The translations under genes and the position numbers were made by a program. Positions 23,840 through 53,800 of a stretch of DNA of 64,000 bases are shown here, piece after piece (positions within the stretch are counted from its first letter, which is position 1; the number at the start of each line of letters is the position of its first letter). Below the pieces are notes generated by a model, which had not been told where the DNA came from, searched no databases, and saw only the letters and a list, made by a program, of their open reading frames with translations. Origin of the DNA: Convolutriloba macropyga. Lineage: Eukaryota. The stretch is taken from positions 13,640,001 through 13,704,000 of the forward strand of contig NC_134468.1 of assembly GCF_964194025.1 (NCBI RefSeq), written 5' to 3'.

Positions 23840-23882
23840 AGAAAAAAAAAATTAATGTCAAGTTTTCAATTTTCAGTTTTCA

Positions 23883-24975: not shown

Positions 24976-25132
24976 GAGGAAGCAGAAGAAGAAGGCCCGG
25001 TTTGGAAGAAATCAGCGCCCAAAGAGTTAGCTCAATGACAAGTGGTATCAAATTTTACTGCACTTTTTTCCCAAATAGTAATGAATAAATAGCGAAAAAT
25101 TGAAAACTGAATAATACGAGAAATGCGGTAAT

Positions 25133-26488: not shown

Positions 26489-26761
26489 ATGATGTCAAAG
26501 ATATTGTTTGTTGCATTATTTGCTATGATTGTTACGAGTGTTGATATTAACAAGTGCATTTTATTGAGCGAAGAGAACAATTTTGGGACAAATTTGAAGT
26601 GGTTGTGTTGTGATGGAGTACAATTTTTGAGCGAGGCTGGAAAAATTACAGCAAAAGCAGGGGCATGCGAAAATTCCCAAAATAAAGTGAAGCCTTCAGC
26701 TGGCAGCATGTTAATGATAGCCAGTTTTGCAATTGTGCTACAATTACAGTTGAGTCATTAA
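26489..26761 (+). CDS. Small predicted secreted, GPI-anchored protein (90 aa; ORF open from 26465)
   Basis: N-terminal hydrophobic signal MMSKILFVALFAMIVTS, 4 Cys, candidate omega site in CENS, polar spacer, hydrophobic C-terminus MLMIASFAIVLQLQL. Confidence 0.6.
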   Translation: MMSKILFVALFAMIVTSVDINKCILLSEENNFGTNLKWLCCDGVQFLSEAGKITAKAGACENSQNKVKPSAGSMLMIASFAIVLQLQLSH

Positions 26762-26940
26762 TATGAGAGTAGTAGGAAAGTGGTGAAGGAAAACAGTTTA
26801 ATGAGAGCAAGTAGATGGAGTTGAGTAAAGTGAACAAAACTAGAAAATTTCAAAAACAAAGAAACTTTTAGTTTTATTTACCATACGTTGAATCTGTAAA
26901 TGAATTAAAGTTAGGAGAAGATTGATCTATATATTTTTCA

Positions 26941-29242: not shown

Positions 29243-29509
29243 TCTTTAGTTAAAATTTGTTTTCTTAAGTTCGCCAATTGTTAGTACTGCTCAATTCGAC
29301 TGATTTTTGGATAAATGATCTAAATATGTGAATATTTTGGTTTGTATTCTGAGTGTGTTGAACTTTATAAGAAAAGGTTATGTTTGAACTGACGGGAGTG
29401 ATATCCAAAGTTTAGTCAAATTAACTTTTATCAAATGTTACTAGATTTGTTTGCTGTTTCAGTGGAGCACAGGAAGGACATAGTTTGCCTACTTAGATAA
29501 TCTAAACAA

Positions 29510-32500
29510 TTAGTTTGCGAATCGGTCAGAGTTCGATGAGCTGGCTTGATAGCGTTTTGGTACGTTCACCTCTCGGCGAAGTTCATATGCCCTGTTAGTT
29601 CCAACGCGTGGATCTTGATCTGGTGGAACTAATGAGCGGCGCCTTCTTTTTGATTTATTTGGCGGATCCAAAGGAACCGCTTGTGAAAACACGCTGGTCG
29701 GTTGAGTAGTGGCCCGTGTAACGTAATTTGGATAGTGTCGGGTATCAATGAATTCGGCACTCTGAGTAGTTGGTTGGAAGTGTTGGTTTCCTTCTACCAC
29801 AAATTGCTCCGCAGTATTTTTATACTCTTCGTGACAAAAACCTGGCCTGTTTTCCTGGTTTTGGGTCTGTAGGGGTCGCAAAATGGGCTGCTCATCATCT
29901 GATTGTTGTAATATGGGGTCTGAATTTCGTCCATCAGCAACTAAATTTGTGTTATTATCATTTTCACGTCGGTTTATATTTAATTGCAGTTCCGGATTAT
30001 TTGCAAAGTGTGTTGGAGCATTAAAACGTGATCTCACACCAAATTGCATAATTGAGGAACCATTAGATGGTCCCACTATGATTGGCGAGTGGTGGGAGGC
30101 TAGATCTTTTAGGGTTTGGTCAAAAATTTGAGGTTCAGAGATTATTTTTGTGATTGGGTCGGCTTTAAAAATTTTGGAGTCAATCTCTTTCAAATCTTCA
30201 AACTCGTATTTTGGTTGAATTGGACGCAAACCAATACGATGTACGAGTTGTGTATCGTTGGTATTAACTTTGCGAACTATATAATTTGAATTTGTTAAAA
30301 CTTGCTCAACGCGATAGAGCGGTAACCATTTGGTTACTGATTTAGCAGCAAAGTCTTTTGTACTACTTATTTTTGGGTTCATTAATAGGCAGTACGAATA
30401 CAATGCTAGAGGTTTTGAAAGAGCTTTTTTGTCATAGAAACGACGATATTTGTTGTATGCAACTATGGAATTATCCCTAGCACCAGCAAAGAGCGTGTTC
30501 ATACGGTCTTGACTTTGTTGTAAAAAGTCTTGAGTTGGTTGCGCTTTTTTGACAGTTAAATTATTGAATCGCAAGTCAAGGGGCTTTGTCGGCTGACGGC
30601 CATGAAAGAGCAGGGTCGGGGGGCATCCTATTGAAGAATTATAAGTGGTGTTATAGACAGAAGCTGCGATATCAACATAATGGTGCCAGTCTTTTACAAT
30701 TATATCTTCGTAAATATGCAAAAATCGTTTTACTATAGCATGGCTACGTTCAACTGCACCAATTGTTTGAGGATGTTTTACAGATGCCAATTTTAGTTCA
30801 ACTTCTAGCAATTCACATAAAGTTTTCATCATCTTTGACGTGAAAACTGAGCCCAAATCACAAAATGGTTGATGGAAGGTATGCGTGCTGCATAAAAATT
30901 TGAAGCAAAAATCTGGCAACGTTTTCCGCCGAGGCATTTTTCATTGGGATTAGAAAAAGATAACGGCTGAAGATATCCATCGCAGAGAGTATGTGTATAA
31001 CCTCCGGAGGGATTAAGTTTGCCTACAATATCTACTTCCATCAAATCTCCCGGAAAACATTGTTCTGATGCAATTGGTAAAAGAGGTGTTTTTAGGCTGT
31101 TTTGCTGAACTGATTTGATTTGCAAACAAGATGAACAATTGGACACATACTCTAAAAGAGTTTCTGTAAATTCAAGAAAGTAAAACCTCTGGCGAAACTG
31201 GTTTGCAGTTTCGGCTGTTCCAATGTGTCCCATAAATTTGCTATTGTGAATTCTAAACAGAATCTCATGACGAAGGTGCTTAGGAAGAACCAACTGACGT
31301 ATAAAATTCTGTCCGGTGTTATCGAAAAATTTGCGATATAACACATTATCATACAATTCCAATCGGTTCAATTGTTTATTATATTTTTGCAATTCGGTAT
31401 TAGAGTAAGTTGTAACTGGTTTCACTTTTCTCTTGATCCAATTGATCACAGTTCTAATATTGCCATCTTTTTGTTGCTCCTCAAAAAGATTCAGGGACTG
31501 GTTGTTATTGCTGAGATCAAACTCATCTAAGGGGTTAGCTTCTGCGAGTGAATTTAAGGGGAAGTCAAAAGAAGGCTCAAACACTTCAATCATATCAGAA
31601 TCTGGTTCCTCTAAATAGCACTGTAAAGCTGTAAGACTATTGTCTGGAATTTTTGGTCGGAATTCGACAGCAACGTCTATAAGTTGAATTCTGGTTTCCA
31701 ATTTTAGTTGGAGCTTTGTAGCAGGATTAATATAGATCCTAGACAAATAATCTGCGGCTACGTTAGCTTTACCTGGGACATGCCCCAAAACAAAATTGAA
31801 ATTAAGGACATGATCAACTGCATTCCATAAGGCAGTTGGAATTGTCTTTGCCTGGAAAAAACTAGTCAAACTTTTGTTGTCAGTCAACACTAAGATAGGT
31901 TTTTTAGTCCCCCATAAGATGTGCGCAAAATTATCAAAAGCAAAAGGAACTCCCAGAAACTCTTTTGCATAAACTGATAATTTAAGTTGCGTTGTATTAA
32001 AGATTTTAGAACCAAAAGCCACGGGAGCGTATTGCTTCTGTTCTAGTCCTTCCTGGTTCAGTACATAGTCCTCTACCATAAGGACGTATCCTGCGGAATA
32101 ATAGCTTGCGTCGGACAAAATTACATATTGTAGATCTGTTTTTGGTTGGCGAAGGGTTATTTTACAAGCATTGTTTAGCATTTCTATTAGTTCACTCATC
32201 GATTTTCGGTGCTCATCCGTAATTTCAAAATTGTTGTTACATTTTAGTAGTTTGTAAAATGGGAGCAGTCTCTCACTGAGGTTCGGTAAATAGGTCCTAA
32301 AGTATTGAAATAAACCAACAAGTCTTTTGACTTGCTTGAAGTTTTTTGGCATTTTGAGATTTGATAAAAATTTATCTATTTTGGCCTTTATGGGAGATGT
32401 CCCTTCCGATGAAATTGTTCTACCTAAAAGTGTGATCTCGGGGACACCAATTTCACATTTTCCCATTGATAACTTAAGTCCTGAATTTCTAATACACGTA

Positions 32501-33890
32501 AAGATAGCTTTCAAATTTCCGTAAAGACACTGAAAATCAATTGCGCCTGTTCCCAAATCATCCACGTACTGGAAACATTGGTCATTAGCTATACATGAAT
32601 CAAGGTACTTTCTCATGAAAGAGCTGAAGGCACTGACTGATCTACTTAGTCCCTGTGCTAACCTAGTGTACGCAAAGGTTCGGGAGGCAAAATTGAAGGC
32701 TAATAACTGGACAGATAATGGGTCAGACATCTTAACCGCATAATACGCCGGACTACAATCTAGTTTTGCGAAAATTCGTTTGCCCGCTAAATGTGCTCCG
32801 ACATCTTCTATAGTTGAAATCGGGAAATTGTTAGAGTTGTAGTCATGGCGTATTAAGTGATTAATACGCCTAAGGTCAACTAATAGTCGGAGTTTTCCGG
32901 ACGGTTTGCGTTGCGCAAAAAGAGGGCTCGAGTATTTGGAATAGGGCAGTGTAGTGATGATTCCAAAATACTGCATTATAGCTAAATCAATTAGGATTTC
33001 CTCGCGCAAGTGAATTGCAGTGGGTGGGCTCTGAGTATACACTGGTCGCTGTGTTTCAGGTGTGAGCTTAATCTTAAACTGGTCATTTCCACCGACATCA
33101 TAATTGTGCCGCGCAAAGACATCATGAAAAGAAACTAAAAGTTCTTCAAAGTAGGCGTTAAAATTGTAAGTCGAGCAACTACTGCTCCCTTTGGTACTGA
33201 AACTACATTTGGGGTTACATTTAAGAAAGCTATTGGCGTTTTTGAAGATTGGATTTTTGAAAAGGAGCTGGTTAAACAAAGACCTGTTGATCTTTCAAAA
33301 CGTGGGTTAGGATCTACAATTCCAATTGTGTTGTCGGCTAAAATATTGTCGAGAAAACAATCTATTGTTTCCTGACTATTGGGGAAAATGTTCAATTTTT
33401 TGATTGTTTTGAGAACGTATTTATGTTTTTTTAAATTTCTTTTTCGTTTTGCCATTACGCATTGTCATTTCTGAAATTTGCAGCGATATTTCAGGCAGGT
33501 GTAGTTTTTGATGCTACGTCAATTAGAATTCTATTGTTTTTATAGAATGGAAGACCTAAAATTGGGTTATTCATTTTCGGCAACAACAAAAACTTTTCTG
33601 TGAATACTTGATTAGCGAGAGTGAAGGTGATTTCAACTTGACCTAGGGTTTTTGCATGGGTTGCGTTTGCCACTTTTACAACGGGAAAGGGGTTTGTATC
33701 AAGATATTTAATACTCTGCGGTGCAGAAGATTTAATTTTCAAGCATGGACGGTGTAAGAGCACTAGAGAAAGCACCAGAGTCCACTAAAAACTTTAAGGA
33801 AAGTGATTTAAACGTTAGGGGAACAAAAAACAGATTTGAGGAAAAAGGAGGCATAACAGCAGTTAGAAAAGGGGGTTGCAAATGTGGCTG
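29510..33890 (-). pseudogene. pol: pol (protease, RT, RNase H, integrase) with frameshifts and an internal deletion
   Basis: FLVDSGA protease motif (~33785); RT LRLLVDLRRINH, AQGL, YVDD; RH SDAS..ELL-like..TDNKSL; IN HHCC (H..H..CSSC), DIVG, DLGSVFTS, ERSH. Confidence 0.95.
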
Positions 33891-33892
33891 AC

Positions 33893-35781
33893 CTAGTTTT
33901 TTTGCTGATCAAATGGCAGTTGCTGATTTCTTTCAGGTTGAGGTTTGGACCAGCAGTACTGCACTGTGTGTCCATACTTTCCACAATTGCGGCAGTATCT
34001 CTGGTTTCTGGTGGGCATTGTATTTGACCAGTGTCCTGCGTATGCTGTTGGATAGCCTGATGCTGGGTAACCTTGTGCTTGCACACCCGCTTCATCAGTT
34101 GTCGCTGACTGTTGGCCGTGGGACTGATAGCCATAAGCCTGGTAGACTGGCTGCTGTTGTCCTGTTGTTATATAGCCCATTTCCACCGACATCATAATTG
34201 TGCCGCGCAAAGACATCATGAAAAGAAACTAAAAGTTCTTCAATTTGTTCCTTTTCTTGTTCAGTTAAAATTGAATTGTCCCACCGAAATTTTGAAAGAA
34301 ATTTTTTCCTAGACTCAGAATCTTTTGTTGGATCAAGCTTTTCTTGTTCTTTCAAAAATTTGAGTGTCTCAAATATTCTTTTGTGAATACCGGTTAATGC
34401 ATCTGGGTCCTCACAATTTTCAGGTGTAGGAAACCAAAAGCAGTCTGTTGGAAATGGTAAACTTTGCTGGGAATTGTCAACAAGCTCGTTTATGTCGCTG
34501 CCATCTATATTTAAGAGCGCTGGGTCAATTGGTTGTAAATACTTTGCTTGCTTAGGCGTTAAAATTGTAAGTCGAGCAACTGGACGGTGTAAGAGCACTA
34601 GAGAAAGCACCAGAGTCCACTAAAAACTTTAAGGAAAGTGATTTAAACGTTAGGGGAACAAAAAACAGATTTGAGGAAAAAGGAGGCATAACAGCAGTTA
34701 GAAAAGGGGGTTGCAAATGTGGCTGACCTAGTTTTTTTGCTGATCAAATGGCAGTTGCTGATTTCTTTCAGGTTGAGGTTTGGACCAGCAGTACTGCACT
34801 GTGTGTCCATACTTTCCACATTTGCGGCAGTATCTCTTTCAAATTTTGACTTTTATATAGCCCGGTCTTTGAGAGCTGATTGCATTGTGACTCTGATTAT
34901 TTTGACGCCAGTCTCTTTGTTGGAAAGGTTGTTGCATCTGCCAGTTTTTGTTAAACTGGTAGGGCGGATTAAACCGCTGTCTTGGGTAAAACCCACCTCT
35001 GCCTCGATAGAAATGGTGCGGCTGTCTAAAATTACTATAAGGAGCATTAGAGTTTGCATTTTGACTTTTATGCTCTTCCAGTGACTTCGCTAATTTGTTT
35101 GTTGTTTCTTTCAGCTCTGTTTGATTTTTATTTAAGGCACTCATACTCTGAATAAGTGAGGTCATTTGTGAGGCTGAGATTTCGCTAAATGCTGTTCCGA
35201 CATCATCTTCAGGGTATTGCTCTTCAAGCATCGCCCTTCTAGAAGCCCGTTCACAAGTCTTCTACAGTGGTGTGGTCAGGAAGAGTTAGTAGGTACTTTT
35301 TAAGCTTATTTGGCAAACCATTAATAAAGTTCTCCTTAACTCTTCTGACTCGCTCATTAGAACGATCTTCAGCAGCAACTGCTGGCACGCCAGCAGCGGC
35401 AGCTCGCGCAGCAATATTTGGAAAAGCAAGACTAGCTAAGCGTTGCAACTCTGTCAAAAAATCATGAATGCTTTCCTCTGATTGCTTCAGTTTTCTATTT
35501 TGGAATTGGAGTTTATAAAGTTCAATTCTATCAGGGTTTACATACCGGTTTCTCAATGCGTCTAGTGCTTGATCCAAGTCTTCACGTATGGCTTCTGTAA
35601 GCTGGTCATAAAAAACTAAGGCATTACCTTTAAGATGAAGATGCAAGTAGCGATGTTGTTGATCCTCGTCGATTGCTGCCAATCCAATGCAACTTCGAAG
35701 TTGTCGTTCAAATTGAGTAAAATTATCTTTCTCTGATCCCGAAAAGGGCGTCAAATTGAGAAAAGGTTGCAACTGAGCCAT
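33893..35781 (-). pseudogene. gag: gag (Ty3-type capsid + CCHC knuckle), frameshifted and internally rearranged
   Basis: LTPFSGSEKDNFTQFERQL..LKGNALVFYDQL capsid; knuckle CR[K/N]CGKYGHTVQYC present twice (~34790-34832 and ~33955-33997), each followed by an AAAAAAC slippery heptamer and TAG. Confidence 0.9.
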
Positions 35782-35887
35782 AGTTTACAACAAGAGATTG
35801 CAGAGTTTTACGATTTAGTTGTCATTTCCAATGGGAGTCATATTTAGTTTTAAGAGAAAAAATCTCTTGACTCAAACTTGCCAAAAA

Positions 35888-35901
35888 CACTCCTGTCACC
35901 A
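35888..35901 (-). promoter_or_regulatory. Primer-binding site, tRNA-Leu-like
   Basis: TGGTGACAGGAGTG directly after the 5' LTR; one mismatch to the complement of the recalled tRNA-Leu(CAG) 3' end (TGGTGTCAGGAGTG). Confidence 0.85.
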
Positions 35902-36339
35902 TGTCAGCGGAGGTGACAGCGGAGGTTCTCCTTTATGCCAGCTATCTATTAGAGCAATTTTGGGGGCGCTAACTATTTTGGTTTTCTCAGGCTTTTGTTT
36001 TAAAGATTTTAAGTCAGGATGCTCGAAAGAGTTCTTTTGGCAATTTTGAGTCTATCTCCAGAAATAAAAGTTTTGTGCAGCAAATGTTTTATTCACAAGT
36101 CAACTGAGCTGTAGCTATCGTTCTCTCTGTTCTGAGAGTGGCAATTAGATTAGAGAACAACATTTGATGTTAAATATTTGCACGAGATAAAGTCAGAGCA
36201 TTGTACAATTTAATCTTTATAATCCCGGATGTTTATGGGCGTGTGAATGAGTTACACTTTACTAACAATGGGGTAAATGCACGCGCATGGATTGTACAAA
36301 TATGTTTAAGCATGGCACGAATGTATGAGGGGCATGACA
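35902..36339 (-). repeat. 5' LTR (438 bp)
   Basis: Matches 23381-23826 and is followed on the - strand by the PBS. Confidence 0.95.
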
Positions 36340-38251
36340 ATAATTGGAATACTAAACAAACGTGTACACTTGAAAACCCTCAAATCACCAGTTCCATGTT
36401 TCCAAGAAGTACAGCCGCTCGTACATACTATAGCTGGCGACTAAATCAACACTAAATTAAAAGTCTGCATGGCTCCATAACGATTGTAGTGTCTTGTTTT
36501 CCAAGAAACACAAGAGCTGTCTTTGCTATTTGCTATCTCAAATCGGCCTTTGTTACCAGTCAATTCCCCAAAAAATTAACTCCTAATTTTTAAAAATTGA
36601 AAACGCAATAACTTGTCTGCGAATCAAAAAGGAAATGAACTTGGTTTTGTAGAATCAGAAGCTCTTATTCCCAATAAAAGCAGTTGACAATCAACGATCT
36701 GTAAATTTTCACAAAATAGGGAATAGAATAGGAAAGGTGAGCTTTTAATTAAAACTGCCAGCTGTTTCCCCCAATAGAATTTCCCAGCTGCTCTGAATAG
36801 GAGTATGTAGACCATATGGAGAGCATAGTTTTCTACGGTGTTATCACTTAATGTTACATCTCAGTTTAGTTTGCTTTGCTCTACAGTTTTTTTCTATGCT
36901 ATTGACTCTATGTTCAAAAATTACAAAATCTAATGATCTTCAACCTTCAACAAAACTTCTTTGTCAACTTCCTTGGAAAATGTTAACTTCTTTGGTGAGA
37001 TTTTTACCTGTTTCTCTCAATTAAATATGCAACTGCTCATCCATCATCTGTTCTGTTAGAGAATGCACCAATCCCTTACCTTTTTAGAAACAAATTTTAC
37101 CAAGTTCTATTTTAAATTATAAATTGTTGAAAAACACTCCAAAAATTCTCTCTGGAATTGAGATTGTCTTGGTGTCATGGAAACCAGAATCAAATGCGTG
37201 TTCATTGGAAAAAAACAATTACAGAAACAGACAACACAATCGTACACAATAACATATATTTCGCACTCCTACGCAGCGCAATTATCGGTCTCAGAGGCTG
37301 CCGTGTTACTAAACGTGTAGCTGAGGTTTATATTACATAGTTTTGTTGTGTGGGAGGGGAGGCTAGACAGCTAATTAGTAAAGTAACATTTCAACCTTTT
37401 GATGCGGCTCCTGTAGTCAATCACACTAACATTTCGCTTAAGTTTAAAATACAATGTGCTTTTGCGGTAAATTCAAATACGCCGCTGTGATGTTTCTTAT
37501 TGGTGGCTAACTCTTTTGTCTATTGTAGTGGATCTGACACTTTTGCAGTAACCTCTTGTCAGTAGACCGATGGAAATTTGCAATCATCTTCATGATATCA
37601 CTTACATAACATAAAATCTATAGGATAAGGTTGGAACTGTATAAATCAGTTTACATTTTCAGCAAGAACTGAAAAAACTTTTCAACAATTGATTCAGTTT
37701 ATATAGTTTTTCATAAAATCCATATATATAAAATTTTGTATATATAATTTTAAACTTGTAATATTTAACCCCTGGGTTATATTTTCAATTTACTTGTTTA
37801 AACAAAAAAATAATAACCACTTTTGTATCTCGCTGCAAAAAACATCGGACAAACATTTAGGAAGGGTTGGAAGAAGCTACACATGCTGGTCTAGGATTAT
37901 TACCATCCGCGGGTCTCTAGAACCCTAAAACTCCATGAATTGCCTTTCACACCGCGAACGTAGATCTCCGCAGCAGTTTTAGTGAATCGCATACTTATAT
38001 TAGTAAGGCTCTAGAGAACTGCCCGGCGACCTAATGCCCTCGGGTGTTATCAGTTTATCCTGTCTCTCAAGTTCTGTTCAGTTGAAGGTTTCTGATCTTT
38101 AGGCATCCGCCTCTGTCGATCAGCTCTTTCGTCGGAGGGTCATTTCCCTGTCAAATTGACGTTTTAAACTTAATACAACTTTGCTTCAGAGCACAACAAG
38201 AACCGAGGAAGGCAAAAGCTACATTCTTAAGTACATTTTATATAGAATTAC

Positions 38252-38359: not shown

Positions 38360-38893
38360 CTGAAAAACATAGATCACATACAAAAACATACATAACTTGA
38401 ACACAAAAATTCTTTTCTTTAACTTTATTATAGTATCTCCTTCCCCCGCTGGTCACGCAGATAAACTTTCTCTTCGTTGTCGTAACTATAAGAAATTGGG
38501 TAGATACCCGAGTTACCAATTTTTTCCCACGTCACCAATGAAATTCAAACCAAAAATGAATGCGACGCCCGCACAGTCAACAAGACTGATAGTGTAGACG
38601 CCGTGTATGTCATATACAAATTCCTAATCCAGATTTGATATGAATTACACTTTTGTATTGGTTGAAATTCTGATATGGTAAAATGAATTTGTAGCTATTT
38701 AGAAATGGATTGTGATTGGTTTATTAGATTAACTTACAAAAACAATTGAAGAAGTTGCATGAAGGAGTTGGAAGAGATAGAGTGTTAGAATAAAGTTGCA
38801 AAAAGATGTTTTGAAATTGAGAGAATTAGAGGGAATCTGCTCAGAACCTGCATCTGAAAAATTATAAACCATAGAATTAATAGTGATAGAAGA

Positions 38894-38913
38894 TGGTGAC
38901 AGGAGTGGGATTC
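38894..38913 (+). promoter_or_regulatory. Primer-binding site, tRNA-Leu-like
   Basis: TGGTGACAGGAGTGGGATTC, extending into the complement of the tRNA T-arm. Confidence 0.9.
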
Positions 38914-39403
38914 TTGAGATCTTGTGAGTGGGACTCACAAGATCTCAAGCCACCCTGTTTTAGCTTGAGGATCTGTATACAAGTTCAAGAGACCAAATAT
39001 ACAGATCTTCAAGCTAAAACAGGGTGGCTTGAGATCTTGTGAGTTCTACATGTAGAGATGTCTCAGCCTAAGTTTGTTGATCATGCAGTCGATTAAATAC
39101 CGACAAAAACATTCCTTAGGAAAATACACTTGGCTTGATAATACGGACTGCCAGAAAAACATCGTCTGAGTTTTTGTCTTTCAAAAACGCCTCTTTTGCT
39201 TCGGGAGTATTATTGCACCCAGCAGCAGTCATAAAAAGTTTCCTAACACTGCCTCAAAATGTTCACAAGCCATGAAAAACAAAAAAATAACGCCTACTTA
39301 TAATTTAATGTCTATTTCTACAGGCATAAAATATTTTTAGATTGGCCACGTGAAATTAATTGTAAGCCCTGTAGCATTCAATCTTTCGAGAAAACCCTCC
39401 AAA

Positions 39404-41650
39404 ATGATTTCTTGGAAATACCTTATATTTCTCATAATTACAGTGCACATTTGTTATAATGACAACAAAATCGAATCACAGAAAGGTATTGATTTTATAT
39501 ACCAACAACAGCTACTCCTTGCTGAAAAATTCGTGAATATTCAATTTCTAGTTCCTTTTCCAAGAATGAATGTCTCGTTGCAAAATCAATTCAGAAATCT
39601 TTCGCTACTTTTGAAAAACTCTTGGAATGACTATTCATTTGGTTGTCAACTGGATCATATGAACACAAATGAGACCAGTTTAAACTTCGACTATCTTCTC
39701 CATCATACGGAAAACGAATTCAAATCAGTCCAACTAGACATATTGAATATAAAAAACGAAATACAGAGAACATTTGGAACAAAAGAGCAAACAACAACTG
39801 ATAACGAACGGACAAAAAGAGGAGCCGGCCTAATTGCTTTAGGAGCATTAACAGCTGTAACTGCAGGAGCAGGAATAGCGTGTTCTCTCGGCAGCATTTT
39901 CGGAGCTTGCGGAGGATCCAGTCGAGATCGTGAAGACATCGACTTGGCCTTGTCACAGATTGAATTGAACAACCATCGGTGGGTAGAAGTTAAAGGCAAA
40001 GTCAACTCAAAAATGTACCTCATTGCTGACCAACTCGACGATGTAAACTCAGTGCAAAAGCGAATTATCCAAACGCAGAAAAATCACACAATGGTGTTGA
40101 TGAAAGCAGTGGATATTATCCAAAATAACTCAAGAGCATTGATGGCATGCTCCCAATTGTTCTACGCAAGGAACTAAATGCTTCAAGTACAGGCGAGTCT
40201 TCTGGGATCTTTTTCAGCGTTGCTAAATGAACTTAAAATGTACCGTGTTGCCATCTACAGCTATAAGCTAACAATTTTGAACTCGGTAATGATTATGGTG
40301 AATAAATTGATTCCTATGGCACTCCTACCTAGATCGGATTTAGAGGAAATACTTCGAGATATAAACCACTGGCAATCCGACACAAATGAACGTCTTACAT
40401 TGGCTATACCAATAACACAAATTCTAACTTACTATGAAACGAAAATACTGAGAAACGTAGACATTGTTGACGATGGGATGTACTTCACATTAGCCATTCC
40501 ATTTGTTACCGCAGCGACAGTTTTAAATTTTTACAAAGCAATACCAATACCCATGCCTAATGATGGAACAGACGGTCACGCATCACAGTATGCTATTGAA
40601 TCTGATTTTATAGCAGTTTCTTCTACTCAGAAAATAGCGTTACTTTCACAGGACGAAATCAATAGATGTGTCGGGTCGAGTAGCTTCTCGGTGTGTATAA
40701 ACGGTCTTTCTCTAGAAACAGCCCAAGATACATGTCTTGGATCACTACTTATTAACAATCATTTAACTGCTCTGCAAAAGTGTGAAATTAAAACCGTGAG
40801 ATGGCCATTAAAGGAAAAAGCGAGAAATTTGGGAAATGGCAAGTGGTTAATAACATCAGCATCATCGAATTTCAAAATGTATATAAGCCCAATAATAAAC
40901 CATGATCCATTGAAAAGAACACCTTTACCAGGATGCCAAGTCTGCATCATTGAACTTCAATGCGGGACAAAACTGGAAACCACATTTTTAGAAATCAGAG
41001 CAGACATGTTTTCATGCCAAAACGTAACGCTTCAAAAACTGGATATTAGACTAACTGACCCTTTGAAACATCTCTTATCAAAAGTTCCGGCAATTGACAA
41101 CTTGCCACATTTTGCAACCATTGCTCAAGCAAGACAACAGTTCATTGAGGAAATACAAATCCAAATGTCAGAAATTCCTAACCATCAAAGACCATCGTTG
41201 AATAAATTAGATGAAATCGCCCAACCAATTTTAATGAATATGCAGAGTATTCGACCTAGTTTAAGGAATCGTTTCACGCAAAGTGACACTTGGATAATGT
41301 CTGTCATAATTAACACAATCTCTTTTATAATCTCAATGATATTACACGCTCTCATAAACTACGTTTGTCAAAAGTATAGTCGACGATATTCAAAAATGCG
41401 CAAGTTTGTTGTGGGCTCATTTGGAATTCATCCACGACAAATACTAGTGGTAACAGAAGATGAAAGGCAGACACTTATGCTACAACCTGGAAACCGACTG
41501 ACAGCAGAGAACATTGTCATCACGGACAAACAACTGTCAAAGCTTCTTGGACCTACAGCTCCAAAACGAGAGGAACTCCAAGTAATGCAACCATCTTACG
41601 ACGTCGACCTATTTTGCCAGCACTTGGCCAATAATCTTAAATCAGCTTAA
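39404..41650 (+). pseudogene. env: env glycoprotein with one in-frame TAA at 40175-40177
   Basis: Signal peptide, RTKR|GAGLIALGALTAVTAGAG, TM near 41290-41360. Collinear with the other env (LLAEKF.NIQF.VPFP, RLTLAIPI..YYET, LGNGKWLITSA, GCQVCII). Confidence 0.9.
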
Positions 41651-42309
41651 GAAAAACATAAACACTTTAATATAATTCATATAGCTTACACGAAGTAAAG
41701 GTTGCTGCAAGGCGCTTTCTAATTTTTAACCTAAAGCTCGCATGAAAATTTTCAAGAGGCGCAGTGATCTTTTTGAGAGGCACATTGTTCTTTTAAAGAG
41801 ACATATAGCTATATTGTTCTTTTAAAAGAATCACATTGTTCTTTTTATAGAGGCGCAGTGTCATATACAAACTCCTAATCCAGATTTGATATGAATTACA
41901 CTTTTGTATTGGTTGAAATTCTGATATGGTAAAATGAATTTGTAGCTATTTAGAAATGGATTGTGATTGGTTTATTAGATTAACTTACAAAAACAATTGA
42001 AGAAGTTGCATGAAGGAGTTCGAAGAGATAGAGTGTTAGAATAAAGTTGCAAAAAGATGTTTTGAAATTGACAGAATTAGAGGGAATCTGCTCAGAACCT
42101 GCATCTGAAAAGTTATATACCATAGAATTAATAGTGATAGAAGAGTGTCTAAACACAACTTCACAGTCTGCTTGTATAAAGGACACCTAGCTTACTACAA
42201 CTTCTTTCGTTGTCACCGAAAACGCCTCATTTTTTTCGTCACTAATGAAACCTTTTTGCATACCAAAACTGAATATGGATATATGCTTTTTTCTTCTCTA
42301 AGATATTTT

Positions 42310-44060
42310 AGATCTATTGTTTCGGCTCTAGAAATTGCTCTAAGAGAACTCTATTCAAGTAACCTAGCTCCAGATATCCTTAGGTCCGCCATGAAAAGTC
42401 TGTTAAAGCTTGCAGTGACAAATGTTCATTTTAAATGTAATGGGATCTGGTATGTACAATCAGATGGTCTGGCTATGGCTGCATCATTGATTGGCTGTAA
42501 TACTAGCAAACGTGTGGATGAAATCGTTTGAGGCATCACTGCAAAAACCAGAGTTCAGTGAAAATATCTCCAGATCCGATCAAAACGTGAAGTGCAAAGA
42601 CTGTAACCGAAATGACTTTACGAGGAAGAGGAGTAGAATGCGAATCATGCAAAAACTGGTTTCATGCAAAATGTCAAAAGATAACGAATGAGGAATACGC
42701 CAACAAACAGGATGTTGTTTGGATTTTTACTTATTGCAGCAATGAACAGACAGTGGGACGGTATGAGGTGAAATTGTATAAAAGGTATGTGGATGATATT
42801 ATCTGTACTGTGCGTTGTGACCGGACAAGTACTTAAAATTAGCAAATTCATTACACAACAACCTGCAATTTACCTTTGAAAAAGTTAATATGGACGGGGA
42901 TTTGGCTTTTCTTTACCACAAATGTGAGCAGCAAAAGTATTATGACCTGTCATTGGTATCAAAAAACCAACTGACACTAGAATAATTCTGAATTTTCACA
43001 GCTGTGCACCGTTTCAGCATAAGGAAAATGTGATTCAAGGGTCGGTTCACAGGATTTTTAATGCAACATCTAATTGTTTGGCTTTCGGTCAGGCTCTTGA
43101 AAGGAACAAAACTTGCTGGATCAAAAATCAGTATCCAGAGGAATGGTCGACAAAATAGTGAACCAGACTTTAGAAAAGATAATAAGTGGCGGTAGAGACC
43201 AATTGAGAAAAACACATAAAAGAGCATCGAAAGAGCAAAAATATATCTCATGATAAGCCAATAATTTTTCTGCAAAACAGAGGCAAACTTACTCAACACT
43301 TTGCAAGCAAATTGAAGAAACTATGCGAATTGAAAGTGGTTTTAACAACGCGGAAATTAAGATCATGCCTCCCCATCCTGAAGTCATCCTTCGGTAGAGA
43401 CCTGAAATCCCACGTGGTATATGAGATAAAATGTACTGGATGCCGATCCATCTATGTTAAGCAAACAAGCCGGCTTGTTACCACAAGGATAACAGAACAT
43501 CAAAAGAAGGATTCAAAGCTGGGTTGAATGTTGTGGCGCCCCGAATGACTTTGAATAGAAAATTCTGGACGCCTGCTGGACAGTAGAAAACCTAATGACT
43601 ATCGAAACTATATACATCAAAAAGCTTAAGCCAGCACTAAACACACGCGATGAATATAGGGGGCGGGAACTCACGCTAAAATATTGGTTCAAATCATAAT
43701 TTTGACTAAATAGGGATACATAGGGCAAAAAATATTTTGTGCAAGACAAAAAGAAATTTGCAAATGCTTCACAAGAGGGATACTTAAAAATTCGGAAAAT
43801 GAATGTTTTAAATGAAAATCGGGAACTTGAATGTTTTTAAAGGAATTGATAACAGTTGTAAATACGCTAAATAATGTAAAAGGGAAACAAAATTAGAATG
43901 AATTTTTTTTAAAATAGTTCCCAGAAATGTTTTAATAGTGGTCTCAGACTAATGTAAATACATATTCATTTTATCATTTAACAATTTTTGAAACAGTTTT
44001 AACCTGACGTTGAAAGTAAAATTCGAAAACGTTAGTTTTAAATATCGGAAATAATTTTAA
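42310..44060 (+). mobile_element. Penelope-like element, 5'-truncated and decayed (RT + GIY-YIG)
   Basis: YVQSDGLAMAA..ILANVWM, YKRYVDDI, VVYEIKCTGCRSIYVKQTSR..RITEH, C-terminal KPALN. Confidence 0.85.
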
Positions 44061-45029
44061 ATTAAAAAAATTGGTTTTTTTTACATCCACTAAAAGAGTA
44101 GACTGTCAACTCGGGTGCAGGAAATCAACTCATGTGTATTTATAAACCCCGGTGGTAGTCAAAAATTGAAGCACCAGATGCAAAAGATATTCATAGGCAG
44201 ATTGCCAGAAAATAGCCGCAATAGTTTTGTAGGTCTGCAGTCTCAAAAAAACAGTAAAAAAGACAGACCAAAAAAATGTCTTTTCATTGAAGGCTTATAT
44301 GTTATATGTTGATTAAAAATCTATATAAGTTATTGCTGTCTCCAATAGTTGCTCTCAAATAACCTTCATTTAGAGTGACACACACCCATTTGACCTTATC
44401 TCTTCGAATTAAAGTAAATAAAAATCAATTTCAGAGCAACAAAGTCATTTTTGAGATTTAGGTAAGTCAAGCGTGACCAAAAACTAAATAGCACGAATCA
44501 ACAAAGATTCGCTCCAGTAAGATTGAAAAATGACGTCACACAAGGACTTCAGTTGAAATTGCATGAACAAATGGGCAAAAATCAGATTCGAAGTGGTTGT
44601 GACGTCATATGGTCGGAACAAATAATCAAAACGACGAATTAAAAAAACAAGAGAAGGCCAATAGTAGCCCCAGTTATCGCTGTGCGGCTATTCAAGACAT
44701 TAAAGCATCAATTAAAGCAGAATTGTAATCAAAAGCGACATAGTAAATTGCAATTAAAATATGTGTCGTGATTTTGAATCCAGATCAGAGAAAAATATAA
44801 AGCATTTAGCACAAAGGCATCCCTTACCTTACAATGGTTCCACGGAGGCAGAGTATGGAGCAACACAAAAAAGCGAAACTAAATTTGACCTTATGCACGG
44901 GATCGCGTCCGAATATGAATCTTCTTTCTTATCGCTGATCCTGGAAGCCAATCTCTCTATTGCTTTTGATGCTGACCAAACAGCTCGTCCTGTACACGAG
45001 AAGATTAACGAACAGAAGGTGGCATTCTC

Positions 45030-46520
45030 GACATCTATTATCCTTCGCTCGTATTTCAGCTTCTTCGTGGTTTTGGGATATTTGCAGGAATCTCAGCACA
45101 CGGATTAAATACGTTCACAACAAAGAACGTTCTGCTGAAACGGGAATCGAACACAACATTAGCTTTGATATCTAGTCGAGCGTCTACATCAAAAGTGGTA
45201 GTTCTATTTGCGAAGCTTTCGTTTTGCAAATCCTGAAGTCAGGGCACTACTTCGACTTCATCAGAGACCTCATAGAGCAGGTTGCAAAAGAGTGACGGAT
45301 GCCATTGTGTCTTATTGCGTATGGCCACCTTTTGGGCAATGATGAGCATGCGCTACATAAAAGCTTTCTGCAATTGCGCATCGTGATGCCAATTTTCCGG
45401 GATCTCATCCATATATAAGAGGAATTCCATCTCTACACTCTCCATTGGTTAAATCAAATTGAAATTTTTTTAATGGAAGTACTGTTTAGCCAGCATGATG
45501 TTCCTTTTTTCATAGTCAAACCCAGAATATACCTCTTATCATTGATCAGAACTTTGATTGCCAACTTTTTCGCCGATCTTTTTCCTGTCTTTCTTTTCTG
45601 ATTTTCTTAACGAATGTTTTCTGGTGAAACTCTGCATCTATAGCAAAAGGATTCTGTAACGGCTCATAGATCTGAATAGATCATTCATATTCTTTTGCTC
45701 TGACTTCAAGAAGAAGATTGCTTAGGCCGCCTTCTTTAACCGAAAAAGAAGAAATCTTCCAGTATCTGTCATTTTAAGAGGGATTATTCAAATTTGAATG
45801 TTTAAGATTTTTATCAATTATGTTTTCGGCTTCCCTCAGCAGACTGTCCGAGTTGGGAGTATTCCTAGCAACAAAAGTCAATTTATGCTGCAATATGTTA
45901 ATAAATGATTTGTACCCATTCTGAGGTGACACCTTGCTATGACTGGCGAGCTTCTCAAGCATGTTAGAAAAGTTCCATGACATTTCTTTCAGAAAATTGT
46001 TGCAGTTTTCATCAGAACCAGTAACAGAACACAGAACTCGATGACCCTCAATAACATCAACATCTAATCGCAAATTTTTTTTGCCTTCTGTATCAATTCA
46101 GGTTTTGTAATGAGATGACATTTGATCACATTATAAACGAATACACGGCCATGTTCATATAGCTTTTATAGCACGATACGCAGTGATTTAAGGCTACCGG
46201 TCACATTACCGTCGTCCTCGTACCATTTATGAGTCAAATTTTGATCTTCGAGAGTATCGATGAGAGGAAGTGTAGCCACTCCGTAGAGTGCAATGCCTGT
46301 TGGATAACTTTGTGCTGTTCCTTTCTGGGAACTAATTACTCTTCAATCAATGAAAAGGTCTTGTGGGGTCTTATATGAGCTTCTGAAATTTGTGTAAATT
46401 GAAGGGCAAAGCTTTTTGATGTTTTTGGGAGTCAGATCTCTAATCAAGCTATCAAACGCATTCCTGGCATCAATCAATAGGATGCCTTTCAAACGATCTT
46501 CAAGAAGGCGCCACCGGAGT
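45030..46520 (-). pseudogene. Decayed CRE-like non-LTR RT/RLE fragment, copy 1
   Basis: SQKGTAQ..LYGVATLPLI..KWYEDD RT motifs, with an RH-containing C-terminal region. Confidence 0.65.
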
Positions 46521-48369
46521 GCATGGATAGCGAGAAAATTTTGCGAACTTTTTTCGTTTTTTTCTTTTTGTACCCCTCTCCTCCCCTTTAATGGGAAAAC
46601 AATATTGGCTCATACAGACGCATGTGCCACAATATTAAATAACACTTTACTATATAATGACTCTTGCTCTGTAACGGAGGGGAACACAGCATAAGGGGGG
46701 ATATACGGAAAGAATCCCTTCCTTATTTTAACTGATGCAGGTGGCCTATCTCTTTAGACGCACGCATATGGACCGGTTCCTTCTCTTTAAGAGTAGAAAA
46801 ATTCACTCGCTTTTGAAATTATTGATGGACTTGTGATAATAGTGGGAGTCTGTGCAAACGCATAGCAGAATATTGAAACGATTTCACATAAAAAACATAT
46901 TGCAGAAACATCATTCGAAGGAACCATTAGTTTTATCTAGCCGAGCGTCGTCATCAGTAAAGGTAGTTTTTTTTGCGAAGGTCTCTTGTTGTAAAATCCG
47001 AAGACATGGCTTTATTTCGACATCATTGCAAACTTCATTGACAGGTTGAAAAGAGTTAAGTGTTTAATTGTTCCTCATATGGCTTTAACATCATTACTGA
47101 GGAACGTACGCTCTTTTAAAAACCTTTCCGGAAGTGAACGTTCATGGCAATTCAACCGGAGCTCATTGATATCTATAACCCACCAACTAGTTTAACCGAA
47201 TAGATCTTTTCATTGGACTTGCATTCAGCCAGATTGATGCTTCCTTTCCAGAGCAAAACCTTAAGAATGTGCCTCGTTTCATTGAAGAAGAAGAAGAATT
47301 TTTTTGGATGTGATGTTAACCATGTTAACCTGATAACTTGCTCCGGCCAGTTCCTGCTGTTTTATTCTGATTGTATGCAGATTCGTTTCTCGATAAATTT
47401 TGCATCTACAGAAATCATATCTTAATGGCTCGCAAATCTGAACAAATCTGCCGTAAATTTTATCCTTGTATTCCGGTGGTAGTCAAAAATTGAAGCATCA
47501 GATGCAAAAGATAATCATAGGCAGATTGACAGAAAATAGCCGCAATAGCTTCGTAGATCTGCAGTCTCAAAGAAACAGTAAAAAGGACAGACCAAAAAAA
47601 TGTCTTTTCATTGAAGGCTGATATGTTATATTTTGATTAAAAACCTATATAAGCTATTGCTGTCGCCATTAGTTGCTCTCAAATAACCTTCATTTAGAGT
47701 GACACACACCTATTTGACCTTATCTATTTGAATTAAAGTGAATAAAAATCATTTTTAGAGCGAGAAAGTCATTTTTTTGAGGGTGAGGTAAGTCAAGCGT
47801 GACCAAAAACTTAATCACGCGAATGAACAAAAAATTCGCACCACTAAGATTGAAAAATGACGTCACAGAAGGATTTCAATTTAAATTGCATGCACAAATG
47901 GACAAAAATCAGATTCGAAGTGGTTGTGACGTCATATGGTCGGAACAAAAAATCGCAACGACGAAATAAAAAAAAACAAGAGAAGGCCAATAGTAGCCCC
48001 AGCTATCGCTGTGCGGCTATTCAAGACATTAAAGCATCAATTAAAGCAGAATTATAATCAAAACCGACATAGTAAAATGCAATTAAAATATGTGTCGTGA
48101 TTTTGAATCCAGATCAGAGAAAAATATAAAGCATTTAGCACAACAGCATCCCTTACCTTACAATGGTTCCACGGAGGCAGAGTATGGAGCAACACAAAAA
48201 AGCAAAACTAAATTTGACCTTATGTACGGGATCGCGTCCGAATATGAATCTTCTTTCTTATCGCTGATCCTGGAAGCCAATCTCTGTATTGCTTTTGATG
48301 CTGACCAACCAAATCGTCCTGTACACGAGAAGATTAATGAACAGAAGGTGGCATTCTCGACATCTATTA

Positions 48370-49890
48370 TCCTTCGCTCGTATTTCAGTTTTTCCGTGGT
48401 TTTGGAATATTTGCAGGAATCTGGTATGCTTCATGTGCAACTCTTAGCATACGGATTAAATACGTTCACAACAAATAACGTTCTGCTGAAACGGGAATCG
48501 AACACAACATTAGCTTTGATATCTAGTCAAGCGTCGTCATCAAAAAAGGTAGTTCTATTTGCAAAGCTTTCTTTTTGCAAATCCTGAAGTCAGGGCACCA
48601 CATCGACTTCATCAGAGACCTCATAGAGCAGGTTGCAAAAGAGCGACGGATGTTATTGTGTCTTATTGCATATAGCCACCTTATGGGCAATGAAGAGCAT
48701 GCGCTACATAAAAGTTTTCTGCAATTGCCCATATTGATGCCAATTTATCGGGATCCCATCCATATATAAGAGGAATTCTATCTCTACACTCTCCCTTGTT
48801 TAAATCAAATTGAAATTTTTTTAATGGAAGCACTATTTAGCCAGCAAGATGTTCCATTTTTCATAGTAAAACCCAGAGAATATACCACTTATCATTTATG
48901 AAAACTTTGATTGCCAACTTTTTCGGCCGAGCTTTTTCCTGTTTTACTTTTCTATTTTTCTGAACGAATTTTTCCTGATGAAACTCTTTTCACTGATGCA
49001 TTTATAGCAAAATGATTTTTTAACGGCTCATAGATCTGAATTGACCATTCATATTCGTTTGCCCTGACTTCAAGAAGAAGAATGCTTAGGCCACCTTCTT
49101 TAACCAAAAAAGAGAAAATCTTCCAGTATCTGTCATTTTAAGAGGGATTATACAAAAATGAAGGTTTAAGATTTTTATCAATTATGTTTTCGGCTTCCTT
49201 CAGCAGACTGTCCGAGTTGGGAGTATTCCTGGCAAAAAAGTCATTTTATGCTGCAATATGTTAATAAATGATTTGTACACATTCTGAGGGGACACCTTGC
49301 TATGATTGGCGAGCTTCTCAAGCAATTTAGAAAAGTTCAATGACATTTCTATCAGAAAATTGTTGCAGTTTTCATCAGAACCAGTAACAGAACACAGAAC
49401 TCGATGACCCTCAATAACATCAACATCTAATCCCGAATTCTTTTCGTGTTCTGTATCAATTCGGGTTTTGTAATGAGATGACATTTGATCACATTATAAA
49501 CGAATACACGGCCATGTTCATATAGCTTATATAGCACGATACGCAGTGATTTAAGGCTACCGGTCACATTACCGTCGTCTTCGTACCATTTATGAGTCAA
49601 ATTTTGATCTTCGAGAGTATCGATGAGAGGAAGTGTAGCCACTCCGTAGAGTGAAATGCCGTCTGGATCACTTTGTGTTGTTCCTTTCTGAGACCTAATT
49701 ACTCTTTCATCAATGAAAAGGACTTGTGGGGTCTTATATGAGCTTCTGAATGCTGTGTAAATTGAAAGACAAAAATTTTTGATGTTTTTTGGAGCCAGAT
49801 CTCTATTCAAATGCGTTCCTGGCATCAAGCAGTAGGATCCGTTTAGTACGATTTTCAACAAGGCGCCACCGGAGTGCATGGATAGCAAGA
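48370..49890 (-). pseudogene. Decayed CRE-like non-LTR RT/RLE fragment, copy 2
   Basis: IRSQKGTTQSDP..LYGVATLPLI..WYEDDGNVTGSLKSLR; IRHNNIR RLE-associated motif. Confidence 0.7.
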
Positions 49891-50809
49891 AGGTTTTGTG
49901 AAATTTTTTTTGATTTTTTCTTTTTGTACCCCTCTCCTACCCTTTAATGGGAAAATAATTTTGGCTCATACAGACGCATGTGCCACAATATTAAATAACA
50001 ATTTACTATATAATAGCCCTTGCTCTGTAACGGAGGGGAACACAACGTAATGGGCGATAAACGGAAAAAATCCCTTCCTTATTTTCCCTGATGCAGATGG
50101 CCGATCTCTTTAGACGCACATGGACCGGTTCCTTCTGTTTAAGAGTAGAAAAAAAATCACTCGCATTTCAATTTATTGATGGACTTGTGATATAAGTGGG
50201 AGTCTGTGCAAACTTATAGCAGATTATTGAAACGATTTCGCTTAAAAAACATACTGCAGAAACATCATTCGAAAGAACCATTAGTTTTATCCAGCCGATC
50301 GTCGTCATCATTAAAGGTAGTTTTTTTCGCAAAGGTCTTTTGTTGAAAAGTCCGAAGACATGGCTTTACTTCTACATCATTGCAAACTTCATTGACAGGT
50401 TGAAATAAGTTAAGTGTTTAATTGATCCTCATATGGCTTTAACCTCATCATTGACGAACGTTCGCTCTTTTAAAAACCTTTCCTGAAGTGAACGTTCATG
50501 GCAACTTAAAGGGAGCTCATTCATATCTATAACCAATCAACTAGTTTAACCGAATAAATCTTTTCATTAGAGTTGCAATCAGCCAGATTGATTCTTTTTT
50601 TTCCAAAGAATGTGCCTCATTTCATTGAAGAAGAAGAAGTTTTTTTGGATGTTAACCATGTTAACCGAATTGTTTGCTCCGGCCAGTTTCGGCTGTTTTA
50701 TTCTGATTGTATGCACATTCGTTTCTCGATAAATTTTCCATCTACAAAACTCATATATTAGGGGTTCGCAAAACTGAACAAATCTGCCGTAAATTTCTTC
50801 CTTGTGTTC

Positions 50810-53800
50810 ACGTTGAAAAACGCTCAAGGAACAAGTAAAACATTTTCATACTCAAGCAATGCTTAACGAGGTCCATTCCACGTTTAAATATTCCTTCCTT
50901 AAAGAAGTTGTTCTTCAGTTTTTCGTTGCGCTTTCGAGTTAACAACTTTTTCGAATGTCCTCTAGTTCGGGTTCTCGAGTTCCCCTGAAAAAGTGATCCT
51001 GAGATTTTGCGGTCATATCTTCCTGATGTCAACTTCAAGGTCTCAATCGCGTCGCCTCTCATTCGTCGGTAGAAAAAGAATGGCACTTAGAGTATTCTGA
51101 ATCTCTCTTAACAACTCAGTTCCTTCAGTTCAAAGATTTTTTTTCGTAGCTCTCATTTGAACATTTTTGATAGTTTTGATCATTTTTCTGGTTCCAGGAT
51201 TCCACACCGGCGTTGCGTATTCGAAATAAGGTCTTAACAAAAATAAAAAATCTGAAGAGATGTTTGAATTTGTTCACGTCTAAGTTGTTGAAAGTTCTCC
51301 TGATGAAGCCGATGATTTTGCTTGCTTTGTTCACTTTGTTGACGATGTGCATTTCAAATTTCAACTCATTGTCAAACCTACCTTCAAGATCCACATTTAT
51401 AGGGTCTTCTTCGATCGTCTCTGGACGTTTGATCTCTGCACATTATTTCCTACAAACAAGTCTGCTTTGCGCCAGATGTAGGAATTTCGATTTCTTCGGG
51501 TCGAATGGAAAAAGCCATTTCTTGATCCAATCTTCCAGGGCAAACAAGTCTTGCAAAAACTGAATAAATCATTGCCCAAAAGCAGATCACTTCATTGAAA
51601 AGTTTTGTCCCTGAAAACATGTAGACTGGGCTCCGAACACAAGGAAATGACAAAGAAGATTAGTCCTAGGACGCTACCTTGCGGCACGCCAATTTTGACA
51701 TCGCCTTTTGACGATTTCTCTTAGTTCACGCTGACATGATGTTTCCGGTCACCTAGGAACGCTTCCATACACTTCTGGACTTTTTCTCCAATTCCGTATG
51801 ACAGCACTTTTAAGGAGTCTTTTGTGAGGTTTTTTTTTCAATTTTTTGGAATCCCATTAGATACAATCAATGCCTCCTCCTCTGTTAAGTATCTTAATCC
51901 CTTCATTATTGACTGTTAACTATCAGGCCATTTTAAGCAAGCTGGTTCATTATTTTGCCATGAATAACGCTTTCTACGGTTTTAAAAACAATACTAGTCA
52001 CAGTAACAGGACTTTTCAACAAGCTTCCGGTCTCCTGTTTTCAAAAAACTGTAATCGTTGCTTCCCCCCGTCCATGAAGAACTCTCTTTTCAATCAAGCA
52101 ATTTCAAAAAAACAACTGCGGTCGCTTGGCTAGAACTCAAGTCAACTCATTCATTTTTTCATTGATGATCACATCTGCAAGCATGCTGAAAAAAGCACTT
52201 TTACCATACAGCTCCGGAGTCTCATATAGTTCTGTAACAAACACACTGCAGATGTACAAGATCAAGGCCTCAGCTTTTTCTTTGCCGGCTAAATCTGTCT
52301 CTCTATTCTCGGCTCAAAATACGCGTATTCCTGTTTTGATATTGAACTTTGCCTTTACAGATATTTTTTTGGTTGGATCTGACATCTCTAGCAATCTGGT
52401 TTTCGATTCTGACAGTTTCCGTTCGAGTAAAGTTTCTTAGTTCCTTTTTTTATTTTTTTGTACTTTTCCAGTGTTTGATCAGATTTGCTGCGCAAAATCT
52501 TTATGCTCAAGCTACTTTTTTGCTTGCTTGACATGCTTGCGAGTTTCAATAGTACGCGGCACTGGAAGCTTTACTTTTGCCTGACTCTTCATTTCAGGCA
52601 CCCATTGAGCTGTTAACCATTCAATTTCATTTTTGAGTTGTCTTTTGAATAGAATGTCAACAAATTTCCGCTCCATTCGATCTGTTATATAATTTCCCGA
52701 CAATTTTCGTAGTCGCCTTTTGGGAATATTTTTCTCTCCAATTTTGGTTTTGTTTGAGGTCGTATAAGAAGATGACTGAGTGGTCACTTTTGTTTTCAGT
52801 GCTCCAAAGTCTCCAAGATTTATCATTTTAGAAGTCAAAGTGTTGAATACGCTAAGGTTTTGTTCGGCTCTCTCTTTCGCAGTTTCTTTTTCAATCTCGA
52901 GAGCCGAGGGGTCATAACATTAGTTTCTCTTTTTCCTTTTTCGTAATTTTCTTTGTCTCTATCCCTTGTCTCTTTCATGAGTTTTTGAAAATCTGTTACA
53001 GTTGAGAAGTTCATTTGCATCACTTGTGACCCATCACTTGCTTTCATCTTTTTTGAGAGAAATTTAACGAATTTTTACTCTATTGTGTTTGAATTTTTCT
53101 TTGATTCCATATGACAACACAATTTTTAGGAGCTTTTCGAAGTACTTTTTCAAGAGGTTTTTGGAATTGCAATAGACAAATAGATACAACCAACGCTTCT
53201 TCCTCTGTTAAGTATCTTCGGCCAGTCATTTAGGACTGATGTTAGTTGGCGGCTGGGGGATCTTCTTTTGACAAAAGCAAATTGACTGTTTGAGTTAAAG
53301 CTATTTCGCGGAGGGTGGTCCGCTATTTTGCCACGAATAATGCTTTCCGTGAACTTAATGAAAACATTAGTCAGACTAACAGGACTATAATTTTCAACAA
53401 ACGTCCGGTCTCCTGTTTTGAAAAGAACTGTAATCGTTGCTTCCTTCCTGTCCTTGAGGAGTTCTCCTTCAATCAGGCAGTATCTAAATAGCAACTCCAA
53501 TTGGCTGGCTAGAAATCAAGCCACCTCTTTTATTTTCTTAGTGATAATCGCATCTTTAAGCGGGCTGGAATATGCTCACTTGCCATGCAGTTCCGAAGGG
53601 TCATCTTGTTCTGTAGCAAACATACTGCAGAAGTACATGATCAAGGTCTCAGCTTTTTCTTTGTCGGCTGAAATTGTCTCCCTATTCTCGGCTCTCAAAT
53701 CGTTTATTGCCGTTTTGATATTGAGCTTTGCTTTTACATTACGCCAGAACCTTTTTGGATTAGACACCGACATCTTTGGAAATCTGCTATTTGGTTTTCG

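Follow-up and report, generated by a model that had tools for sequence, protein, structure and literature searches.

How does a retrovirus-like element come to carry an envelope gene and nothing else? Non-autonomous long terminal repeat (LTR) elements usually retain either no gene at all or gag, and endogenous retroviruses usually lose env. Here we consider a 3.5-kb element whose sole gene is env, found at positions 38608-42144 (+ strand) of a 64,000-nucleotide stretch of the Convolutriloba macropyga genome (contig NC_134468.1, forward-strand positions 13,640,001 to 13,704,000; hereafter the window, whose own numbering is used throughout). With a probability of roughly 0.55, we read it as one decayed member of an LTR family that is non-autonomous, carries env alone, belongs to the Ty3/gypsy group with F-type env (the "ancient errantiviruses"), and is mobilized in trans.

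The element is a genuine retrovirus-like insertion, now broken. Its 5' LTR (38608-38893) and 3' LTR (41859-42144) lie on the + strand, are 286 bp long each, begin with TGTCAT and end with GAAGA, and differ at 5 of 286 positions (98.25% identity). It integrated as an LTR element with a 5-bp target-site duplication, GTGTA at 38603-38607 and GTGTC at 42145-42149, the two copies agreeing at 4 of 5 positions (chance, ~0.02). Directly downstream of the 5' LTR lies a primer binding site (PBS) of the tRNA-Leu type (38894-38913, +), followed by a 490-nt leader (38914-39403, +), the env frame, and a 3' untranslated region (41651-41858, +) with short internal repeats and a weak polypurine tract at its end. 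LTRs, tRNA PBS, polypurine tract, and short duplication are therefore all present, even if the tract is weak, the duplication imperfect, and the LTR end GA, and the element has kept its cis signals while lacking replication genes. When the gag and pol frames of a neighboring element were compared with it, nothing fell below an expectation (E) value of 0.27, gag having been searched with these neighboring frames only. Thirty-seven pol proteins used as queries against the whole element gave a best E value of 0.022, and with 156 pol proteins the best scores in leader, 3' untranslated region, and LTR (22.3, 20.4, and 23.5 bits) lay within the range of shuffled sequences (18.9 to 27.7). The alignments and protein comparisons thus bear out the layout given in the first-pass annotation of this DNA, namely, LTR, PBS, 490-bp leader, env, and LTR with no trace of gag or pol.

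The env frame (39404-41650, +) has 748 codons and encodes a hydrophobic N terminus, an RTKR furin-like site (39809-39820, +), a hydrophobic fusion peptide (residues 140 to 163; 39821-39892, +), helical heptad regions, a Cys-rich beta domain, a transmembrane segment (residues 628 to 656; 41285-41371, +), and a cytoplasmic tail. Pfam searches with the two env frames alone and a sequence search of PDB gave nothing useful, and a fold computed from the single sequence was unusable (predicted local distance difference test [pLDDT] score, 32). A model folded on an 81-row alignment reached a pLDDT score of 80.7, and its best PDB matches were paramyxovirus and pneumovirus F proteins (E values of 9e-7 and up); among the predicted viral structures of BFVD, it matched baculovirus F at 1e-19 and a glycoprotein of a myriapod virus at 4e-22. 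Baculo_F was also matched by 5 of the 81 aligned env homologs, and Baculo_F and Fusion_gly clusters are given in Atlas for the homolog P0210. By fold and family matches, the product is an F-type class I fusogen of the paramyxovirus/baculovirus kind. The copy at this locus cannot produce a full-length Env, owing to a premature stop at codon 258 (40175-40177, +), the only in-frame stop within env, and it looks dead. The gene had been described as clearly diverged from the neighboring env and intact except for one stop, and both points hold, identity to the two env frames of the neighbor being 32% and 26%. Near-intactness does not indicate that selection acted here, because neutral decay to half the divergence of the LTRs would be expected to bring some 20 substitutions and 0.8 stops into env; we accordingly rejected it as evidence of selection, the single stop being what neutral decay predicts at the age of the LTRs.

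The env cluster at 90% identity or more has 31 entries, and the 15 listed come from 14 contigs (contigs being told apart by size, with equal size an indirect sign of the same contig); one is the window's own frame, one is full-length, and most are fragments. Env fragments of 72 to 93% identity lie on 19 further contigs. When contig depths were summed and set against that of the flank, where depth is low, env stood at 34 to 43x, the LTR at 36 to 79x, the distal leader at 11 to 32x, and the bin containing the leader hairpin at 4 to 14x in all three runs of organism A; these values are not true copy numbers. Organism B has an LTR-end/PBS piece and env pieces. LTR, leader, and env are thus multicopy as parts. 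An internal deletion present in a single copy, the outcome that the first-pass annotation had set against its own proposal, is for that reason no longer tenable as to the words "single copy," at least for these parts. Long read contigs, of 3.3 to 3.7 kb, also match 40804-41602 at ~82%. No related loci were seen in viral contigs, nor in the metagenomes of the Joint Genome Institute when P0210 was the query, and alignment A3 gave two distant, truncated loci there.

Where, then, might selection have acted? A quick tree built from 39 env proteins places this env in a clade of 8 rows together with P0210, P0199, P0225, P0203, P0238, P0200, and P0201 (Shimodaira-Hasegawa-like approximate likelihood ratio test, 100; stem, 0.87). 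The clade families are 51 to 68% identical to P0210, compared to 30 to 34% for other env families, and full-length members of families P0202 and P0204 retain the furin site and the fusion peptide. Within the family of the present env, substitutions shared by at least two copies had a mean BLOSUM score of 0.88 (n = 34), and private ones had a mean of -0.12 (n = 177; P = 0.0004); this proxy, calculated over 16 rows with the window's duplicate frame dropped and poorly matching stretches masked, stands in place of a codon-based ratio of nonsynonymous to synonymous substitution rates. That the shared substitutions are more conservative than the private ones suggests that the elements from which the copies of the family derive were under purifying selection. 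As a separate observation, P0197 and P0246, which belong to two different clade families, have contigs of equal size (62,425), suggesting local clustering.

The next question is whether pol accompanies the env genes of this clade. Contigs bearing env members were matched with contigs bearing the representatives of pol clusters by equal size, an indirect criterion, over 59 clade contigs (13.4 Mb) and 66 control contigs (22.3 Mb). In an integrase search (37 matches), pol representatives had contigs equal in size to those of all 5 control env families and of none of the 3 multimember clade families (Fisher P = 0.018), nor did any clade singleton have a contig equal in size to one with pol. The control links are supported on the reverse transcriptase (RT) tree, where the pair of RT proteins that match control contigs branch as sisters to those found by integrase. 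In family P0204, furthermore, 3 of 4 same-contig pairs proved to be two overlapping copies of env, one such pair on a contig of just 16.4 kb, whereas double copies of this kind were found in 0 of 4 pairs from other clade families and 0 of 7 from controls (P = 0.2). Taken together, the evidence leans toward short, pol-free elements, without settling the matter.

Several observations weigh against an env-only family. The contig comparison used 15 listed members per cluster, and the RT search found two matches on clade contigs among the 120 of 1,523 matches listed: P0349 pairs with P0242 (223-kb contig) and P0377 with the fragment P0042 (280-kb contig). Counting the P0349 match turns the comparison into 5 of 5 controls versus 1 of 3 clade families (P = 0.11). 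The three clade families are, moreover, not independent, and a single distant pol lineage overlooked by the word search would explain all the blanks. The LTR-leader-env junction was observed once, at 38608-42144 only, and the depth of the parts suits a full-length family equally well. The layouts of the group with F-type env also vary: in two metagenome contigs with distant F-type env relatives, L001 (1-2575) and L002 (1-1102), the DNA upstream of env (2.5 and 1.1 kb, respectively) is without a pol match and may represent a long spacer, accessory genes, or a further env-only form. Finally, the polypurine tract (41846-41858) has purines at just 9 of 13 positions, and the U5 end is GA rather than CA. 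Since both LTRs share the GA end, it predates the last round of copying, and it did not prevent a duplication of normal size. Nor need noncanonical ends block amplification, as a tomato family described with TA-starting LTRs reached 354 copies (PMC3701649).

The leader bears on how such an RNA might be handled. Directly 3' of the PBS, a fold-back region (38914-39049, +) contains a 52-bp hairpin (arms 38928-38979 and 38998-39049) that is 94% paired (z = -13.6), as well as a direct repeat of 16 nt with copies at 38914 and 39029. It may represent a packaging or dimerization signal, or else the scar of a rearrangement. A microRNA reading was discarded, all Rfam matches to microRNA hairpins being below the gathering score. 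A pattern scan placed two donor-like CTT|GTGAGT sites, with GT at 38924 and 39039, at 38921-39044 (+). The acceptor-like TTTCTACAG at 39315-39323 (+), which the first-pass annotation had singled out, is indeed there, past the last of the six upstream ATGs that the leader has between 39050 and 39308. Its weight is small when taken alone, since 33% of shuffled leaders have such a motif somewhere, and on that count we rejected the motif by itself as evidence; the chance of finding it in the last 95 nt is ~0.07. The order of donors, ATGs, and acceptor would be more natural in genomic RNA whose intron has yet to be removed than in a copy made from spliced RNA.

This order matters for one of three other explanations of the locus, the retrocopying of a spliced subgenomic RNA for env, made by a full-length element and packaged and integrated by that parent's own Gag-Pol. 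Such an event would yield precisely an LTR-PBS-leader-env-LTR structure, and errantivirus env is described as typically expressed from a spliced subgenomic RNA (PMC12992720). However, the leader keeps its donor-like sites, six ATGs, and acceptor-like site in intron order, as an unspliced RNA would, and the reading requires a full-length parent, of which the contig comparison gave no firm sign; we regard it as improbable. The competitor we take most seriously, although we consider it on balance unlikely, is an internal deletion that happened once or rarely in an ordinary gag-pol-env family, in which case the leader would be a fusion of the 5' untranslated region and the pol-env spacer, and selection on env would have acted in the full-length parents. 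All depth and copy data are compatible with it. The hairpin bin is shallower than the rest of the leader, and the fold-back with its 16-nt direct repeat resembles a template-switch scar that may mark the breakpoint. The two RT matches on clade contigs also speak for a deletion, as do the many multimember pol clusters that have no matched env family. These RT matches come, however, from different RT lineages, and the integrase search linked none of the three clade families to pol against all five controls, an outcome with a chance of 0.02 to 0.14 under a rough model if the families were linked. Furthermore, no gag or pol remnant is present at the presumed junction, and no joint inside the leader was seen among the 15 of 280 contig joints listed, a list dominated by the high-copy right flank. 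The 24 of 2,585 loose contig ends listed, dominated by that flank as well, showed no other insertion site.

A third explanation invokes the host: env-only copies may have been retained for its benefit, through receptor interference or through defense by Piwi-interacting or small interfering RNAs against enveloped elements. This has been proposed for the LTR-less "solo" glycoproteins of mosquitoes (PMC7642597), and the leader hairpin could supply small-RNA pathways. The copy at hand is nonetheless both young and broken, and third codon positions account for 3 of the 9 near-fixed env differences listed from read contigs, which is no excess (the count left out one listed low-share difference, at 40955). 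One of the 15 listed members is full-length, most being fragments, and a large number of scattered, decaying copies is more in keeping with selfish spread than with retention. Of all the explanations weighed here, this appears to us the least probable.

We therefore return to the non-autonomous, env-only family and propose a model for its propagation. RNA would be transcribed from the 5' LTR and packaged through the leader, with the hairpin as the candidate signal, into Gag-Pol particles of a tRNA-Leu-primed gypsy element, and this helper would then reverse transcribe and integrate the env-only RNA. Env would probably be translated from a spliced RNA that lacks the six upstream ATGs. Selection on Env could operate if the protein coats particles made in the same cell and thereby delivers RNA of the env-only element to further cells, for example, those of the germline; env-less elements in that cell would also benefit, and no dedicated partner would be required. 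The copy at 38608-42144 presumably lost Env function after insertion.

The first-pass annotation had proposed a trans-mobilized element that supplies envelope to gag-pol partners, a split retroviral genome. What the analysis supports of this is a non-autonomous element from a multicopy env family, whose env clade has signs of purifying selection and no firm link to pol in the indirect contig comparison; the split genome itself is a conjecture. The neighboring element, a Ty3/gypsy gag-pol-env element at 23381-36339 (- strand), has an F-type env of its own, and its LTRs are unrelated to those of the env-only element (best local alignment score of 22, against a mean of 19.9 and a maximum of 31 for shuffled sequences), in agreement with the earlier description of the LTR pair as ~98% identical to each other, GA-ended, and unrelated to the large element beyond the TGTCAT start. 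Its own env and the unrelated LTRs rule it out as a split-genome partner. The two elements do share a PBS type, as had been noted: the first 14 nt of the PBS are the same, with 2 matches in the window against 0.00 expected, and a 17-nt stretch of the PBS complement equals the tRNA-Leu 3' end in both of two loci (viral contigs from other organisms). We did not accept this as a sign that the two are partners, because tRNA-Leu priming is common among errantiviruses, tRNA-Leu being reported as the primer in several of their clades (PMC13524379), and a PBS of that type in both elements therefore has little weight. No env-less gag-pol partner with the LTR of the env-only element was seen, the neighbor being the sole element compared by DNA.

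A bolder version of the model, which we offer as doubtful, would extend it to the whole env clade. Here this family and those of P0202, P0204, P0199, and the P0200 type would form an old env-only satellite lineage that diversified without gag or pol, with Env under selection and lending infectivity to env-less gag-pol families that copy it in turn. If this is true, the lineage amounts to a functionally segmented endogenous retrovirus.

Retroviral derivatives in which env is the working gene are familiar from spleen focus-forming virus, Fv-4, and FeLIX, which are helper-dependent or fixed proviruses. These are recent derivatives of known full-length gammaretroviruses and have no long-lived lineage of their own. 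The closest precedent among LTR elements is TelKA2n of the bdelloid rotifer Adineta vaga, described by Rodriguez et al. (2017, PMC5408684) as a non-autonomous LTR family in which an env persists, within a clade whose env is paramyxovirus-F-like, while most of pol is gone. TelKA2n retains the N-terminal part of gag and some pol, however, and has a named full-length relative, TelKA2, whereas the env-only element has no trace of either gene and no parent was found for it; its env clade, moreover, spans several families that are 51 to 68% alike. The F-env "ancient errantiviruses" as described in PMC13524379 share with it an F-type env with a furin site, fusion peptide, and transmembrane anchor in a tRNA-primed LTR element, and the neighboring gag-pol-env element is one of their kind. 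The env-only element has their F-type env and lacks the gag and pol (RT, RNase H, and integrase) by which errantiviruses are likewise defined. Subfamilies of the wheat element Fatima are reported to have complementary gene sets, for which complementation in trans has been proposed (10.1101/363192), but in this plant element the split is between RT-integrase and gag-protease, with no env-only subfamily among those described. The solo chuvirus glycoproteins of mosquitoes and Anakin BEL-Pao elements are likewise envelope genes apart from gag-pol domains, although the solo glycoproteins are reported as gB-like, derived from BEL-Pao elements, and without LTRs (PMC7642597).

By title or abstract, no env-only LTR family appeared in the literature searched, most subscription papers and supplements being outside its coverage. 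Pol-based surveys are blind to such elements; in their survey of env-carrying elements across metazoans, Chary and Hayashi (eLife 2026, PMC13524379) admitted elements only if gag, pol, and env were all there, which puts env-only elements outside its reach, and the terms "non-autonomous" and "in trans" are absent from its main text. If env alone has indeed been kept under selection across diverged families, infectivity and replication would be separable onto two RNAs, and an env-only family would offer env-less retrotransposons a route to the germline or to new hosts. Should the locus prove to be no more than a deletion derivative of a normal family, there would be nothing unusual about it.

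The surroundings of the element add a number of minor observations. The large neighbor is flanked by a perfect 5-bp duplication (ATTAT), its LTR ends read TGTCA...TGACA, and its env and pol are frameshifted. A 257-bp duplication that is 99.6% identical (33746-34002 and 34581-34837) lies in its gag-protease region, around a rearranged stretch, and the element as a whole sits in a tandem repeat of ~1,817-bp units (18741-23382 and 36339-37046). Antisense inside it, on the + strand at 23856-24975, are three open frames separated by intron-like gaps, possibly a spliced antisense accessory gene; HVD and GHAV motifs seen by eye recall JmjC/cupin oxygenases, and the frames had no Pfam or PDB match. 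A small Cys-containing frame with hydrophobic ends at 26459-26761 (+), also antisense and just past the env of the large element, may encode a secreted or anchored accessory protein; it had no Pfam match. Among related gypsy pol proteins, P0316 and P0296 gave weak Pfam matches, below its cutoff, to a Macro domain at the C terminus (E value, 0.014) and to a dUTPase lying between protease and RT (E value, 0.0002). To the right of the env-only element, at 42275-43600, is a degenerate, very high-copy repeat (depth of 20,000 to 50,000 in run X1), which, from RT-like YVDD and GIY-YIG-like motifs seen by eye, we take to be probably Penelope-like. Further tandem duplications lie at 9255-13745 (~2.45 kb), 44149-50809 (~3.3 kb), 51943-55449 (~1.37 kb), and 2780-4047 (~421 bp).

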